In this document: piece after piece, positions 42,061-52,276 of the stretch
Position numbering within the stretch: the stretch's first letter is position 1
Layout: each line of letters begins with the position of its first letter
DNA from: Patescibacteria group bacterium
GTDB taxonomy: Bacteria > Patescibacteriota > Patescibacteriia > Patescibacteriales > UBA12465
Length of the DNA: 64,000 nucleotides
NCBI GenBank assembly: GCA_028705215.1
Contig: JAQWDY010000002.1
Span: 24,759-88,758 of the forward strand
Direction: 5' to 3'
Translations under genes and position numbers: made by a program
Notes under the pieces: model-generated
Seen by the model: only the letters and a program-made list of their open reading frames with translations
Database searches by the model: none
Told to the model about the DNA's origin: nothing

Positions 42061-42090
42061 AAACACGGCTTTTAATGTTAAGCCGTGTTT
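42061..42090 (-). promoter_or_regulatory. 10-bp perfect hairpin in the typA 5' leader (terminator-like)
   Basis: AAACACGGCU-UAACAUUAAA-AGCCGUGUUU followed by UAUUUUC. It lies between the typA promoter and the ATG at 42044. Confidence 0.5.
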
Positions 42091-46303: not shown

Positions 46304-48937
46304 TTATTTTTTATACTCATTTAAATGAACAATTTTTTTACCCAATTCAAATACCACAATACTGGCAATGCCAAAACCTAATGGGAAAATCCAATCAAAT
46401 AAAGACAATGGTTTAACACTTAATAATCTGTTCAAAAATGGCAAATAAACAGATGCTACCAATAGGGCAAAACCAATTAAAGTCGCATAAACCAGGTATT
46501 GATTTGAAAAAGGATTAATTTTGAAAATCGATTGTTTTAAACCACGAACTGCATAAATATAAACTAAAGTACTTGCCCCAATTGTAACAAACATTACTGA
46601 TCGCGCTAAATCAACATCGCCAATTATTTTCCAATAAAAATAGAAGATAGCTAGAGCTAGCCCATCCATTACAATTGCATAAAAGACAATAACTTTTTGC
46701 AAACTAGTTGGTAAAAAGGTCTGATTTTTAGGACGTGGCTTTTCTCGCATAACATTCTTTTCAGTCTTATCAAAGGCCAAGCTAGCAGCTGGCAAAGGAT
46801 CTTCAATTAACTTAATCCACAACACTTGAACTGGCAAAATTGGTAATGGCCAACCTAATAAAATAGCCGAACCTATAATTACCATTTCTTGAAAACAATC
46901 TGTGAAAAGATACAATATTACTTTTTGAATATTATTAAAAGTGATTCGCCCTTGTTTAATAGCCTCAATAATGGTTAGGAAACTATTATCTAATAAAACT
47001 AAATCGGCCACCTCTTTTGCCACATCTGTGCCATTTCCAACCGCTACACCTATATCTGCCTTTTTTAAAGCGGGCGAATCATTTATGCCATCACCCGTCA
47101 TCGCAACTACGCGATTATTTTGTTGTAAGGCAGAAACAATTTTTAATTTATGATGCGGGCTAACACGCGCATAAAGACGTATACTATTTACTTTTTTCCT
47201 TAATTCATTGTCACTCATTTTATCTAAAGCGTCTCCATCTAAAACATTCTTACTATTAATTTCAAAACCGATTTCCCGAGCGATAGCGATAGCTGTTTTT
47301 TCATGATCGCCAGTAATTATGACCACTCTTATTCCCGCTTTCTGACAAGAGGCAATCGCCTCTTTTACATTTGGCCTAATTTGATCCCGTAGAGAAAATA
47401 TTCCCACCATTGTTAAATTCTGCAATTCGTCATATTTTAATTCCCCCTTTTTCCCCGCCTCTCTTTCTACATACGCTAGAGCAATCACTCTGGCGCCTAA
47501 CATAGTCACTTTATCGATTTTAGTCTGATAAAAATCTCTTTCCTTGGCTGTCATTTTTTTTGCCCCCCGGTCTGATTCATATTGACTTGATAATTTCAGA
47601 ATTTTCTCTGGCGCTCCTTTTACATATATAATCTGTTTTCCATTTTTTCCTACTTTATGTGAAGTGGCCATTAATTTAATTTCCGAAGAAAACTGCAAGG
47701 TGCTAAGACGCGGCTCTTCTAATTCAATTTCACGACGATATAGGCCAAAGCTAGCCCCCTTTAACATAAAAGCTTTATCTGTTGGGTTACCTAGTACTTT
47801 TAAATTAGCTTCTTTTTCACCAGGATTTTCTAACAAGCCATCATTACACAATACTCCAATTTTTAAAGCTAAATTATGTTTTTCTATTTTTTCTTCACCC
47901 TTTATGGTAAATAGCTTATCAACCATCATCTCTCCCTGAGTCAAAGTTCCTGTCTTATCAGCGCAAATTACAGAAACAGAGCCCAAGGTCTCAGCAGCAA
48001 CCGCCCGACGCACCAAACCTTTTTTCTTAGCAAGACGTTGCATACCAATAGCTAAAATTATAGCCATTGCCGGAATTAGCCCCTCAGGAACCGCTGAAAC
48101 AACAATAACCACTGAAACCATAAACATTTCGAAAACATCACGTCCTGACAAAACGCCAATAAAAAAAATTAAAACATTAGCAAAGATTAAAAATAGACCC
48201 AGTTTAATTCCAAATTTATTAATCTGACGCTGTAAAGGCGTTAAATCATCACTCGTTTCTTTAATTAATTTTGCTACTTGTCCAATCTCTGTCTTAGCTC
48301 CCACAGCCGTAATTACCATTTCTCCCCTTCCCTCAACTACCACTGTTTCTCTATAAGCCATGTTTTTTCTATCTCCTAACCCCACCTCCTTCTTTATTTC
48401 TGCCACCTCTTTAATTACTGGCAGTGATTCTCCGGTTAGAGGAGCTTCATTTATCTTTAAATTAGAAACTGTAAAAAGACGACCATCAGCTGGCACCACA
48501 TCGCCGGGGTTAAGCTCAATAACATCACCAATCACCAGCTCTTCACGGTTGATAATAACAAGCTCCTCTCCTCTTCTTACCCTAATCTCATGAACAACAG
48601 TGCTATTTAATTTTTTTAATGCATTATTAGCCTTCCATTCCTGAAAAAAACCAACCGTATTAGTCATCAATATAACCAAAAAAATAATTAGTGAATCACT
48701 TTTATGTCCTGCAAAATAACTAATAGCTAAAGCTGCTACTAAAATAAATACCAGTGGATTTTTAAACTGATTTAAAAATAAACGCAAGCTGCCAAAAGCC
48801 TTATTCCTGGGTAGTTTATTTAAACCGTTAGCCGCTAATCGCTTCTTAGCCTCTTTGAGCTCCAAACCCTTTTCGCTTGTTTTTAACTTTTTAAAAACCT
48901 CCTTGGTAGTAAGTTGATAAAATAAAAAATTACTCAT
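46304..48937 (-). CDS. P-type cation-transporting ATPase, type II (Ca2+-ATPase-like)
   Basis: PLTGESLPV, ICADKTGTLTQ, ITGDHEKTA and MTGDGINDSPALKKADIGVA. About 10 TM segments. Confidence 0.92.
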   Translation of the reverse strand: MSNFLFYQLTTKEVFKKLKTSEKGLELKEAKKRLAANGLNKLPRNKAFGSLRLFLNQFKNPLVFILVAALAISYFAGHKSDSLIIFLVILMTNTVGFFQEWKANNALKKLNSTVVHEIRVRRGEELVIINREELVIGDVIELNPGDVVPADGRLFTVSNLKINEAPLTGESLPVIKEVAEIKKEVGLGDRKNMAYRETVVVEGRGEMVITAVGAKTEIGQVAKLIKETSDDLTPLQRQINKFGIKLGLFLIFANVLIFFIGVLSGRDVFEMFMVSVVIVVSAVPEGLIPAMAIILAIGMQRLAKKKGLVRRAVAAETLGSVSVICADKTGTLTQGEMMVDKLFTIKGEEKIEKHNLALKIGVLCNDGLLENPGEKEANLKVLGNPTDKAFMLKGASFGLYRREIELEEPRLSTLQFSSEIKLMATSHKVGKNGKQIIYVKGAPEKILKLSSQYESDRGAKKMTAKERDFYQTKIDKVTMLGARVIALAYVEREAGKKGELKYDELQNLTMVGIFSLRDQIRPNVKEAIASCQKAGIRVVIITGDHEKTAIAIAREIGFEINSKNVLDGDALDKMSDNELRKKVNSIRLYARVSPHHKLKIVSALQQNNRVVAMTGDGINDSPALKKADIGVAVGNGTDVAKEVADLVLLDNSFLTIIEAIKQGRITFNNIQKVILYLFTDCFQEMVIIGSAILLGWPLPILPVQVLWIKLIEDPLPAASLAFDKTEKNVMREKPRPKNQTFLPTSLQKVIVFYAIVMDGLALAIFYFYWKIIGDVDLARSVMFVTIGASTLVYIYAVRGLKQSIFKINPFSNQYLVYATLIGFALLVASVYLPFLNRLLSVKPLSLFDWIFPLGFGIASIVVFELGKKIVHLNEYKK

Positions 48938-49000
48938 TGTTTTAAATATAATTTAGTCTTATTTTTAATTTTATCATAAATTGCCTCTTAGCTCCAATAT

Positions 49001-49033
49001 AAAAAAGCCCTTAAATTAAATTAAGGGTTTTTT
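49001..49033 (-). terminator. intrinsic terminator (bidirectional-looking)
   Basis: Minus strand CCCUUAA-UUUAAU-UUAAGGG followed by CUUUUUUAUAUU. Confidence 0.7.
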
Positions 49034-49051
49034 ATATTTTCCACTATTTTA

Positions 49052-49483
49052 TTATTTCATTTTAGACAGCCCACCCATGCCTCTGCCCGACATCATGCCC
49101 TGGCCTTGATTATCAATACCAATTTCAAGAAATTTATTATGAGCCTGCTCCATTAAATCATGTGCCTCCAAAAATGTAGCAAAATTTTCGGCAGTTATCT
49201 TGTCAGCAAGGAAATGATCCTCTGGCAAGGCTTCCTTCCAAGAATTGTAATCACGCGACTTTAAGGCAGTTTGCATAATATCCCTATTTACTTCTCGAGT
49301 CATATAATTTGCCCCGCGACGCTCATCTCTTTCAGCTATCTTTTCGATTTTTTCTTCTTCACTTAAACCAAACATTCCTCCTCGATTAGATTGATTGGCG
49401 GCATCAGCAATTATTGCGCCACCGAAAAGAAAGGCAAAAGAACCTAAAATTAATAAACTACTTTTTAATTTTTTGTTTTTCAT
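49052..49483 (-). CDS. small secreted or anchored helical protein with a Gly/Met-rich tail (envelope-stress-type?)
   Basis: 143 aa. Signal/anchor is LKSSLLILGSFAFLFGGAIIADA, followed by a charged helical body and the tail GQGMMSGRGMGGLSKMK. It lies downstream of the ECF sigma pair. Confidence 0.5.
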   Translation of the reverse strand: MKNKKLKSSLLILGSFAFLFGGAIIADAANQSNRGGMFGLSEEEKIEKIAERDERRGANYMTREVNRDIMQTALKSRDYNSWKEALPEDHFLADKITAENFATFLEAHDLMEQAHNKFLEIGIDNQGQGMMSGRGMGGLSKMK

Positions 49484-49561
49484 AGATTTATATTATTCCT
49501 AATTTGTCTCTACAATTAGGAAATGTTAATTAATAAACAGAGATTTCTCTCTGCTTATTAC

Positions 49562-49586
49562 TACGTACAAATATTTATTTTCTTCA
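49562..49586 (-). promoter_or_regulatory. promoter-like motif TGAAGAAAA-N12-CGTA (copy A)
   Basis: On the minus strand, TGAAGA (49586-49581), 15 nt and CGTA (49565-49562). The architecture matches copy B at 51003-51027. Confidence 0.4.
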
Positions 49587-49604
49587 TTTTCAAAAAATAT
49601 AAAA

Positions 49605-50360
49605 TTACCTATTTAGTAATAAATCATGGTTTTGCCCCCTGGGAGCTTGTCTTTGGAACATTCTTTTACCGGCCGAATAAGGTAAAACCTTTAAAGCAAA
49701 AAACTCATTTTCTCCTGTTTTTTCCCCAATAAAACGAGCAATTTCATTTTCTCTTAATAAAATTTTCTCCTGATTAAAATTTAAAAAAACCTGCCAAATT
49801 ACTCCTTTTTCATCTCTAACTTCAACATAGTCATTTGTCTTAAAGGGTAAAACAACTCCTAGCAAACGCCCTTTATCAGGCGCAGACCAAAAACCCATTT
49901 GCGGATTAATTACTGTTTGATATAAAGGTGTTTTATAGCTTAAAATTTCATCTATCTTTTCCCCTAGGCCCGCTTTGGTCATAACTGATCCTAAAAAAAT
50001 ACTTCCTAAAAACGATCCAGTAATTATTAACCAAAGTGGATAAAGGTAGCCCTTTTTAGTGTGTTTAACCTGTACAAATATAATGATAATAAAAACAGCA
50101 ACAAAAAATATCCAAAAAAACGGTAGAGTGTTTAACAATAAGCGCCAGCTGGAGATATTTATATCCCGACTTGAAGATAAGTCTAAATTATTTAATAGAA
50201 ATAATAAAACTGAGAATGAAAGAGAGCTAAAAAGAAAAGCAATAAGTGCCAATAACCAAACAAAAATATTTTTTAACTTAAATTGCCAGCGTCTAATTGG
50301 TTTAATTTTTCTATCTTTTATAATACTTATTATTTTTTCACCTAATTTTTCTTCTGCCAT
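49605..50360 (-). CDS. polytopic membrane protein, positional candidate for the anti-sigma factor
   Basis: 251 aa with about 4 TM helices and a soluble C-terminal domain. It starts 14 nt after the ECF sigma stop. No recognisable zinc anti-sigma motif. Confidence 0.45.
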   Translation of the reverse strand: MAEEKLGEKIISIIKDRKIKPIRRWQFKLKNIFVWLLALIAFLFSSLSFSVLLFLLNNLDLSSSRDINISSWRLLLNTLPFFWIFFVAVFIIIIFVQVKHTKKGYLYPLWLIITGSFLGSIFLGSVMTKAGLGEKIDEILSYKTPLYQTVINPQMGFWSAPDKGRLLGVVLPFKTNDYVEVRDEKGVIWQVFLNFNQEKILLRENEIARFIGEKTGENEFFALKVLPYSAGKRMFQRQAPRGQNHDLLLNR

Positions 50361-50374
50361 ATATTTATAAACAG

Positions 50375-50959
50375 CTACTTATTTGTCTGCACTAATATTT
50401 TGATTAATTCTTTTTTAGCCTTATTTAAACGAGAGGCAACTGTTCCTAAGGGCTTTTTTATAATATCCGCTATTTCCTTATAATCTCTTTCTTCAACAAA
50501 TTTAAGAATTATTACTTCCTGATATTTTAAATTTAAACTGGAAATAGCTTGATTTATTTTCTCTATTTTTTCTTCTTGAATAATCTTATCTAAAACATCA
50601 TCATCGAATCTCAACTCTTTAAAATTACTTTCCCTTATATCAATATCAAGAATTTGCGGACGGGCTTTAAAACGACGATAATTATCAATTATCTCGTTAT
50701 GAGCAATCCGATAAATCCACGATGAGAAAGATAACTTATTATCAAAGTCATTCAAATTTAAATATACTTTGATAAATACATTTTGCAAAATATCATCAAC
50801 TTCCTCCTCTCTTACATTAATCATTCTTTTTATATAAAGTCGTAACTTCTTTTTATATTTTTCAACAATATAAAAAAAATCGTCTTTATCTTTTAGAGCC
50901 AGAGTCACCAATTCCCCATCACTTAAATTTATATATTCTTTTTCTAAGCCAAGTGGCAT
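50375..50959 (-). CDS. ECF-type RNA polymerase sigma factor (sigma-70 regions 2 and 4 only)
   Basis: Region 2 is FSSWIYRIAHNEIIDNYRR. Region 4 is YQEVIILKFVEERDYKEIADIIKKPLGTVASRLNKAKKEL. Confidence 0.88.
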   Translation of the reverse strand: MPLGLEKEYINLSDGELVTLALKDKDDFFYIVEKYKKKLRLYIKRMINVREEEVDDILQNVFIKVYLNLNDFDNKLSFSSWIYRIAHNEIIDNYRRFKARPQILDIDIRESNFKELRFDDDVLDKIIQEEKIEKINQAISSLNLKYQEVIILKFVEERDYKEIADIIKKPLGTVASRLNKAKKELIKILVQTNK

Positions 50960-51002
50960 AATACTAAAAATTCAAAAAATTGTTTAACTTAACTTTATAT
51001 AA

Positions 51003-51027
51003 TACGATTTTAAATTATTTTTCTTCA
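51003..51027 (-). promoter_or_regulatory. promoter-like motif TGAAGAAAA-N12-CGTA (copy B), directly upstream of the ECF sigma gene
   Basis: On the minus strand, TGAAGA (51027-51022), 15 nt and CGTA (51006-51003). It can alternatively be read as TTGAAG-18-TATTAT. Confidence 0.4.
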
Positions 51028-51028
51028 A

Positions 51029-52276
51029 CTAATCCTCCTTCCTAAGAGCGGTAATAGGATCAAGACGAGATGCTTGTTGTGCTGGTCTTATTCCAAATAA
51101 AAAGCCGCAACCAAGAGAAAACAACAATGAAATCAAAACTCCTTGAAACGGAAAAGTAAAATACCAATTTAGACCAAAGCGATTAGCTAGTAAAGCAAAA
51201 ATATAGGCTAGGACAAGGCCAAATATAACACCTAGTAGCCAGCCCCAAAAGGTTATCAAAACCGCCTCAATTAGAAATTGCCAAGTAATATCTCCCTTTT
51301 TTGCGCCCAAAGCCTTACGTAATCCTATTTCTGGCGTTCTTTCAGAAACAGTAACATACATAATATTCATAATACCAACTCCTCCTACCAACAATGAAAT
51401 CAACACTATAGCAAGTAGAAGAAAGGTGATTGCTCCCGTTACGGTATTTAAAATATCAATCATCTCTTCCATCGTAGATACTCGAAAATCATCTTTATCA
51501 GGATTATCAATATCGTGCCTCTCTCTTAAAAGATAACGTATTTCTTCTGCCGTTTCATCAGCGATATCAGTATTATAGAGTTCATGAATAAAATACATAG
51601 CATAATCAATTCCCAACATTTTTTTATGCAGAGTATTAATTGGAATAAAGGCCATATCATTAAAATCCATAAAACCGAATGAACCACCTCTTTCTTCCAA
51701 AACACCAACTACTCTAAACTTTTTACCACCTAAAGAAACAAACTCGCCCACCGCTGTCTGATCACCAAATAAGGTTTCTTTTATTTTACTTCCCAAAACC
51801 GCCACTTGCGCCTGCCCCCTGTCATCAGCCTCAGAAAAAAAAGTTCCCTCAACTAGGTTCGTAGCGCTATCAATATATTGATATGGCGCACTTACTCCAA
51901 ATATAAACACTTTTTGACTTTCGCTTCCATATTTAATTCTATCTTGACCTAGGGTTGCAGCGTAGCTATATTTGACATTATTTAACCTATCAATTGCCTC
52001 CATATCACTAACCTTTAAGCTAGTAATTTCACCTACAGCAAAACTAGCAGACTCACTCGGTGTTTTTACCTCAGTCTGAATTATGTTAGTCCCGTATGAC
52101 TCAACCTCACCTAAAATTAAACTACGCAAACCATCGCCAGCGGAAAAGACAACAACAATAGAGGTAACGCCAACCACTATACCTAAAACCGTTAAACTGG
52201 TACGTAAAATATTAAGGCGCAAAGAAGTTAGTGCCAATTTAAAAGCTATTTGAATTTTAGAAATTAATTTATTCAT
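51029..52276 (-). CDS. ABC transporter permease, MacB/FtsX type (paralogue 2)
   Basis: MacB-type periplasmic domain between TM1 and TM2. The FtsX motif is GVGIMNIMYVTVSERTPEIGLRKALGAKKGDI. The longest ORF starts at TTG 52291. Confidence 0.88.
   Translation of the reverse strand: MNKLISKIQIAFKLALTSLRLNILRTSLTVLGIVVGVTSIVVVFSAGDGLRSLILGEVESYGTNIIQTEVKTPSESASFAVGEITSLKVSDMEAIDRLNNVKYSYAATLGQDRIKYGSESQKVFIFGVSAPYQYIDSATNLVEGTFFSEADDRGQAQVAVLGSKIKETLFGDQTAVGEFVSLGGKKFRVVGVLEERGGSFGFMDFNDMAFIPINTLHKKMLGIDYAMYFIHELYNTDIADETAEEIRYLLRERHDIDNPDKDDFRVSTMEEMIDILNTVTGAITFLLLAIVLISLLVGGVGIMNIMYVTVSERTPEIGLRKALGAKKGDITWQFLIEAVLITFWGWLLGVIFGLVLAYIFALLANRFGLNWYFTFPFQGVLISLLFSLGCGFLFGIRPAQQASRLDPITALRKED

Follow-up and report, generated by a model that had tools for sequence, protein, structure and literature searches.

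Positions 49484-49586 of the window, by which we mean the whole 64,000-nucleotide (nt) stretch of contig JAQWDY010000002.1 from a Patescibacteria group bacterium, appear to be the promoter and the structured 5' leader of a gene for a small secreted protein. The leader holds two predicted stem-loops. The first, hairpin 1, is best understood as this genome's short version of an order-wide leader stem-loop, an apparently uncatalogued element whose base is built from its own promoter. The second, hairpin 2, looks like a lineage-specific stem-loop that ends 12 nt before the AUG. Our favoured reading, to which we give a probability of about 0.4, is that the region is a structured leader that confers stability and insulates the gene; the transcription start, the two RNA forms and the stabilizing effect that it invokes are all predicted from sequence. 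A previous sequence-only reading had proposed post-initiation control of the gene. This remains plausible, since the leader is selected and structured, but the two specific mechanisms that were put forward for it, termination at hairpin 1 and masking of a ribosome-binding site by hairpin 2, are unlikely. The genome analyzed comprises 746 kb in 36 contigs and is 99% complete. All features of the locus lie on the minus strand, in the order sigma factor gene, membrane protein gene, small secreted-protein gene and terminator.

The core of hairpin 1, CAGAGA-GAAA-UCUCUG at 49553-49538 followed by UUUAUU, was found on the minus strand as previously described. The hairpin of this "hairpin with U-tract" therefore stood, but the U-tract did not, as the U-run forms the 3' arm of a longer stem of 13 base pairs (bp). 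The extended arms, UAAUAAGCAGAGA/UCUCUGUUUAUUA (49560-49531), include one G·U pair. The extended fold has a predicted energy of -15.6 kcal/mol (z -7.5), and none of 200 dinucleotide shuffles folded as well. A search of 48900-51200 against Rfam, with E values up to 10, gave no match inside 49484-49590. The hairpin lies directly on a promoter of the extracytoplasmic function (ECF) type (copy A). The geometry of ECF promoters sets the start of transcription about 9-10 nt past the A of the CGTA -10 box. This places the predicted start near 49552, and the leaders of small-protein genes (class 2) conserve a pyrimidine-purine step, at index 12/13 past the C of CGTA, that fits with this position. The basal 5' arm of hairpin 1 would thus occupy approximately promoter positions -8 to -1, and the upper part would be transcribed from about +1. 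Because the basal 5' arm lies in the promoter, a transcript initiated there would retain no more than a short hairpin with a GAAA cap at its 5' end, and only RNA reading through from upstream could form the full 13-bp stem.

Comparison with relatives indicates that hairpin 1 is a selected element. The small proteins of the sister lineage (L002, L050) are 52-54% identical to that of the window, yet hairpin 1 and its flank are almost identical between the lineages. All 13 pairs are shared, including the G·U, with one compensatory change from A-U to G-C at the closing pair. The retention of every pair, with compensation, at this level of protein identity argues for selection on the hairpin. In its full form, it is homologous to the basal stem of a genus-wide leader hairpin. 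In relatives such as L003-L005, the counterpart of the window's CAGAGA/UCUCUG is the middle stem (AGAG.G / C.CUC), and that of its GAAA loop is the 5' bulge; the apical part is absent from the window. In predicted minimum-energy folds, approximately 20 of 32 leaders contain a stem that starts 2-5 nt past the C of CGTA, pairs most of positions 3-12 past this C and has its partner segment 25-60 nt downstream. Several pair types are seen at positions 7, 8, 9 and 12. The arms differ among relatives yet are complementary (TTAATTAGC/GCTAATTAA; TTAATTAGT/ACTAATTAA; TTAGTTAA/TTAACTAA; TTATCAAGT/ACTTGATAA; the counterpart in the window is TAATAAGC/GTTTATTA). Cognate arms out-pair non-cognate arms (p < 1e-4 in a permutation test that ignores relatedness). 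The comparison of relatives thus speaks for hairpin 1, with conservation in the genus and in other families of the order, and with compensatory changes.

Alignment-based methods captured this conservation unevenly. RNAalifold predicted no structure from a MAFFT alignment of 16 leaders, in which the 3' arms were misaligned. In a better alignment of 10 close relatives, a structure given by hand had 88% paired cells, in comparison to 20-48% in slid controls, with little covariation because the 10 sequences are too alike. A covariance model built from the close-relative subset found the sister lineage (E ~1e-3) and did not find the window at E up to 1. This model also matched the antisense strand, and we left its alignment unused. 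Bulge asymmetry taken from minimum-energy folds was too noisy to be of use.

These comparisons bear on the simplest alternative, that the hairpins have no function and are chance inverted repeats in AT-rich intergenic DNA. Perfect 9-bp stems gave 18 scan hits in the window (about 14 distinct hairpins) compared to 6.5 in shuffles, so that roughly half of them are expected by chance. Conservation with compensatory changes, and the near-identity of hairpin 1 and its flank across lineages with diverged proteins, are not expected of such repeats. The folding excess is also specific to one gene class: leaders of small-protein genes have a mean z of -1.6 relative to shuffles (-5.9 in the window), unlike the sigma and lipoprotein leaders behind the same promoter, for which z is about 0. 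Within the ECF regulon, the hairpin belongs to a single target gene, and the sigma factor gene's own promoter lacks it. We consider a chance origin very improbable.

Hairpin 1 had been read as a possible terminator or attenuator of the sigma operon. Like Rho-independent terminators, it has a G+C-containing stem (13 bp, with the folding energy given above) and lies downstream of a stop codon, 44 nt past that of the upstream gene; it also has a GNRA loop. UUUAUU comes directly after its 6-bp core, and the two genes have no other terminator between them. However, the U-run is itself paired, with UAAUAAG, as part of the 13-bp stem, and the sequence continues beyond the full stem as AUUAAUUA, with 4 U in 8 positions. 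A terminator consensus scan made no call at hairpin 1 on the minus strand. The relatives have kept the hairpin and not the U-tract, their tails being A-rich (e.g., AAUAAUUUAAA). Canonical terminators of this genome (a hairpin and at least 6 T in 8) follow 25% of the stops of long open reading frames (ORFs), compared to 4.5% inside genes, and the genome's real terminators look unlike hairpin 1. Strong canonical terminators are found just upstream of the promoter in 7 of 32 orthologous loci. Families lacking a canonical upstream terminator tend to have stronger basal stems (mean -6.1 versus -5.1 kcal/mol), but this difference is not significant, and no significant link was found between an upstream canonical terminator and a weaker basal stem (p = 0.65). 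Hairpin 1 is probably not a classic terminator.

The second hairpin was found on the minus strand as previously drawn, UUCCUAAUU-GUAGAGACA-AAUUAGGAA at 49522-49496. The AGGA at 49500-49497, which holds the only GG of the leader, pairs with UCCU inside the 9-bp stem and lies 13 nt before the AUG (49483), also as reported. The fold has a predicted energy of -8.6 kcal/mol (z -3.7; 0 of 200 dinucleotide shuffles as good), and only 3-4.5% of the long ORFs of the genome have an equally stable fold at -45 to -8. It is conservation, and not the fold alone, that marks hairpin 2 as a real feature. The stem is maintained in the sister lineage as UUUCUAAUUUUUA/UAAAAAUUAGAAA, with one compensatory pair (C-G to U-A) and the GG removed, and in L050 a change of CUAAUU to CUGAUU keeps a G·U pair. 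Two metagenome contigs of the same species (Ga0172377_10008813 and Ga0172382_10013901; L048 and L049) are 99.4-99.7% identical to the window, and their sole difference in the leader, G to A at 49508, falls in the loop of hairpin 2. The sister lineage thus keeps the stem and not the AGGA, which reads AGAA there. Homologous copies of hairpin 2 are shared only with the sister lineage, and about half of the orthologous leaders are too short for a second hairpin.

The sequence-only reading had assigned to hairpin 2 the masking of a Shine-Dalgarno (SD) sequence, to be relieved by melting. The pairing of a UUCCU arm with AGGAA upstream of the start does resemble SD-masking hairpins and RNA thermometers (fourU, ROSE), and the 3' end of the 16S rRNA (contig C9, minus strand) is still GGAUCACCUCCUUUCU, keeping CCUCC. 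However, SD-like 4-mers at a spacing of 4-11 nt precede only 2.5% of 551 long-ORF starts, compared to 5.4% for a control zone that lies farther from the start on the upstream side. Over the final 15 nt ahead of starts, the content is 5-10% G and approximately 50% A, and position -1 is T in 73%. By these start-site profiles, the organism does not use SD sites, and hairpin 2 is for this reason probably not a mask of one. The SD-like sequence does lie within the stem, but at 13 nt from the start codon it is outside the 5-10 nt range, it is not conserved, and the stem is perfect, lacking the destabilizing mismatches of RNA thermometers. True SD-like runs do occur in the 3' arm of the start-proximal hairpin in some distant orthologues (AGGAGG 7 nt before the AUG in L012, GAGG at 9 nt in L061), where they are paired to CU-rich 5' arms, and SD masking is possible elsewhere in the order. 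Our literature search on SD usage or ECF sigma factors in Patescibacteria found nothing relevant. Considering both hairpins together, we regard the combination of a terminator or attenuator with an SD mask as quite unlikely.

In most orthologues the AUG comes about 7-17 nt after the end of some hairpin, which is hairpin 1 itself where the leader is short and a second, unrelated hairpin where it is long. These second hairpins are stronger on the sense strand (-11.7 versus -9.1 kcal/mol, p = 0.05) and contain many G·U pairs, with CU-rich 5' arms and GA-rich 3' arms; the sister pair L013 and L051 shows U·G to C-G changes. In the predicted transcript of the window, the start codon region and the A-rich first codons are unpaired. 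The unpaired 12-nt run before the AUG matches the A-rich, G-poor profile found upstream of genes across the genome. Hairpin 2 might act on translation in an SD-independent manner, as a damper that shortens the landing zone of 30S/bS1 and makes output dependent on temperature or on an unfolding factor. The 30S subunit contacts an mRNA region that includes -13, where the stem ends. The rarity of such stable folds at this position, the maintenance of the stem in the sister lineage, the restriction of same-species variation to the loop and the recurrence of start-proximal hairpins in distant orthologues are all consistent with this idea. Against it stand the 12 unpaired nt before the AUG with the unpaired A-rich first codons, and a perfect stem without the mismatches typical of thermosensors. 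We consider a damper unlikely.

The favoured reading of a stabilizing leader draws on the decay machinery of the host together with its lack of SD use. Among the encoded nucleases are RNase J (483 bits) and RNase Y (630 bits), with scores above their cut-offs, as well as RNase III (139 bits); RNase E/G was not found in this 99%-complete genome. This set is that of Bacillus-type decay, in which mRNAs are protected by 5' stem-loops, polypurine tracts and bound ribosomes (PMC3997798). RNA started at the promoter would carry a 5-7-bp, GAAA-capped hairpin at its very 5' end, and would retain hairpin 2 with the start region free. The layout would then combine a 5' hairpin and a purine-rich 5' strand with, in some leaders, a second hairpin, and about 12 A/U-rich nt would stay unpaired ahead of the AUG, so that only the A/U-rich segment covered by the ribosome would be left single-stranded. 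In this way, the hairpins may shield the mRNA against both endonucleolytic and 5'-end-dependent decay and keep the start region free. Read-through RNA from the sigma factor and membrane protein genes would instead form the full 13-bp stem, which could serve as an intercistronic barrier or processing site and not as a classic terminator. The proposed leader resembles known 5' stabilizers (E. coli ompA, the B. subtilis aprE leader and the SP82 polypurine; PMC3997798) in having a stable hairpin predicted at, or within a few nt of, the 5' end, with a short unpaired stretch for ribosome binding behind it, a 5' strand rich in purines and a host with RNase J and RNase Y. It differs from them in that the stem of hairpin 1 runs upstream into the promoter, that its 5' end is predicted from sequence and that no SD site assists ribosome binding.

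Several observations weigh against a stabilizing leader. The hairpin left on promoter-derived RNA is weak, with 5-7 bp and -4.1 to -8.7 kcal/mol depending on the exact position of the predicted start. In L014 and L042, a strong basal stem exists despite a canonical terminator just upstream of the promoter, and the stem is then unexplained. Promoter-proximal hairpins are not a general habit of the genome (mean z -0.41, compared to -0.58 in controls). Across the family, the sense and antisense fold energies of hairpin 1 are equal. Finally, about 11 of 14 lineages have a leader hairpin whose apex is perfectly palindromic across its centre (e.g., GTTAAGATCTTAAC, GAGATCTC, GAGAGCTCTC, GAGGGCCCTC, GAGCGCTC, GGACGTCC and TGACGTCA). 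A self-complementary loop is expected by chance about once in 16, and RNA folding does not need one. There are at least eight different palindrome centres (GATC, AGCT, GGCC, GCGC, ACGT, TGCA, ATAT and CCGG; L003-L046, L061 and L062), fixed at 28-31 nt past the C of CGTA.

The last two observations also speak for an element that acts as DNA. In this view, a long dyad would reach from the -10 box as far as about +30, and its binding by a dimeric protein, or its extrusion as a hairpin or cruciform, would set how active the ECF promoter is. Although the 5' arm is part of the promoter DNA that is not transcribed, it co-varies with its partner. However, the outer arms are separated by anything from 4 to about 47 nt, and asymmetric bulges displace the inner flanking stems relative to each other, a feature more in keeping with a folded single strand than with a protein-bound dyad. 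The window lineage has lost the palindromic apex, keeps a G·U that would be a mismatch in DNA and tolerates a change of the loop from GAAA to GAAAA. No regulator gene is evident in the locus. The exact apical palindrome occurs once per genome in five relatives, with one-mismatch hits at control level. No regulon is thus visible, and a multi-site operator is not supported. A DNA element of this kind seems improbable to us.

The same co-variation of an untranscribed arm makes a role in read-through RNA, as a barrier or RNase III site, a candidate alongside a DNA role. Hairpin 1 could act only in read-through RNA, as an RNase III site or a barrier to 3' exonucleases that uncouples the upstream mRNA from the mRNA of the small gene. 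From the promoter geometry, the basal stem would be possible only in RNA begun upstream, an RNase III is encoded, and in compact relatives the intergenic gap of 72-98 nt consists only of the promoter and the hairpin. RNase III processing stems span about two helical turns of double-stranded RNA. The stacked helices of relatives total approximately 20 bp with internal loops, but the stem in the window has just 13 bp, and the basal stem persists behind the strong canonical terminators of L014 and L042. This role, too, we judge to be unlikely. A broader formulation makes the conserved complementarity itself the functional unit: promoter positions from roughly -11 to -1 match a segment that lies 25-60 nt downstream, in most lineages with a palindromic apex. 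Such a unit could be a DNA dyad or hairpin promoter, working through a dimeric factor or strand extrusion, or a device that gives promoter-initiated and read-through transcripts different leaders and fates. We view it as a minor candidate, with a small but appreciable chance of being correct.

The promoter itself conforms to the ECF layout. Both copies have GAA in the -35, a spacer of the ~15-16 nt class (N15) and a CGTA -10. The pattern TGAAGA-N15-CGTA has two matches in the window, compared to 0.02 expected, and a stringent scan of the genome gave only these two hits, one before the sigma factor gene (copy B) and one before the small gene (copy A). A copy before an ECF sigma factor gene is the layout of autoregulation, and this arrangement is also seen in relatives. 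GAAGAAA, a T-rich spacer and GCGTATTA precede nearly all orthologues of the small gene in relatives. Position frequencies were drawn from 56 sites. In the genus, 69 genomes gave 46 forward hits to the strict pattern, compared to 5 in the control, and across the order 31 of 201 genomes and 20 of 90 genera contain it. Three gene classes lie behind it: the sigma factor gene, the small secreted protein and, in relatives, a lipoprotein, which was not found behind the promoter in the genome of the window. The lipoprotein gene of relatives encodes ~120-230 amino acids (L011, L012, L016, L017, L020, L023, L024, L031-L033, L061, L063 and L065). As judged by this promoter pattern, the small gene and the sigma operon appear to constitute the whole detectable regulon of the neighboring ECF sigma factor. 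Between the ECF promoter and their start codons, the sigma factor genes of L028, L030, L032, L036, L041 and L045 carry an extended -10 of the housekeeping type (TGnTATAAT-like), which suggests dual promoters for the sigma operon in these relatives.

Promoters of the sigW type read TGAAAC-N16-CGTA, where CGTA is the -10 and the spacer is rich in T beside the -35 (PMC5758882). As in the B. subtilis sigma-W system, the promoter of the locus has two blocks, a -35 that contains GAA and a CGTA -10, and its proximal spacer is T-rich; it is placed before both the sigma factor gene and a target gene, and the ECF sigma factor scores best against SigW-like models. The locus differs in its -35 (TGAAGAAA, not TGAAAC), in a sigma factor that falls under every equivalog cut-off, in a membrane partner that matches no anti-sigma family and in a tiny regulon of two promoters in the genome.

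The coordinates of the locus are collected in the table. The sigma factor scores 98.9 bits against TIGR02937 (cut-off 42.9), and its nearest named models are SigW-like, with scores under their equivalog cut-offs. The membrane protein has no match to any Pfam or NCBIfam family. It is a putative anti-sigma partner on account of its position, and 19 of 20 related loci have a same-strand ORF of 258-335 amino acids upstream of the small gene. The small protein has orthologues (30-54% identity) in 28 of 36 sampled genomes of the genus and also in other families of the order. The copy in the window has no Pfam or NCBIfam hit. Its AlphaFold model is helical (mean predicted local distance difference test score, pLDDT, of 67.7), and Foldseek found no match to the model with E < 1. 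Two orthologues have sub-threshold matches to Pfam Metal_resist (ZraP-like), and a profile of the small protein compared to PDB sequences gave ZraP at E 0.16. An alignment of the family (A2) contains an LTxxQ-like motif in relatives, a conserved core, DY..W...F..F.EAHNL, and a Gly/Met-rich tail. The label of envelope-stress protein, which the sequence-only reading attached to this gene, stays a guess. Elsewhere in the window, a hairpin in the leader of typA (42061-42090, minus strand) follows the window's best promoter match and is the most strongly folded promoter-proximal segment among the 47 strong promoter matches of the genome (z -5.8).

Table 1 Features of the sigma factor and small secreted-protein locus, with positions numbered from the first letter of the window.
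Feature	Position	Strand	Details or basis
ECF-type promoter copy B, TGAAGA-N15-CGTA, before sigma factor gene	51003..51027	-	Pattern search
ECF sigma factor gene, 194 amino acids	50375..50959	-	Pfam Sigma70_r2 and Sigma70_r4_2
Membrane protein gene, 251 amino acids, putative anti-sigma partner	49605..50360	-	ORF list
ECF-type promoter copy A	49562..49586	-	-35 TGAAGA 49586-49581, -10 CGTA 49565-49562
Hairpin 1, full form	49531..49560	-	13-bp stem with one G·U, GAAA loop 49547-49544
Predicted transcription start	49550..49554, near 49552	-	ECF geometry, ~9-10 nt past A of CGTA
Hairpin 2	49496..49522	-	9-bp stem UUCCUAAUU/AAUUAGGAA, 9-nt loop, AGGA in 3' arm
Unpaired A/U-rich run, 12 nt	49484..49495	-	Minimum-energy and centroid folds of predicted transcript
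Small secreted-protein gene, 143 amino acids	49052..49483	-	Signal peptide, helical core, Gly/Met-rich tail
Canonical intrinsic terminator of the small gene	49008..49027	-	CCCUUAA...UUAAGGG then CUUUUUU; terminator scan

Taken alone, the window yields a modest result: the hairpins appear real and selected, and neither mechanism first proposed for them is likely. To our knowledge, almost nothing is known of gene regulation in Patescibacteria, which cannot be grown alone. The locus offers a defined regulon, with an ECF sigma factor, two promoters and a target leader that is conserved across the order. As the anti-SD sequence is kept and SD sites are not used, expression is likely to be set by the structure of the leader and not by how strong an SD site is. 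If the promoter-embedded stem is functional, it would mean that very small genomes overlay a promoter, an intercistronic signal and an mRNA leader on the same 60 nt.

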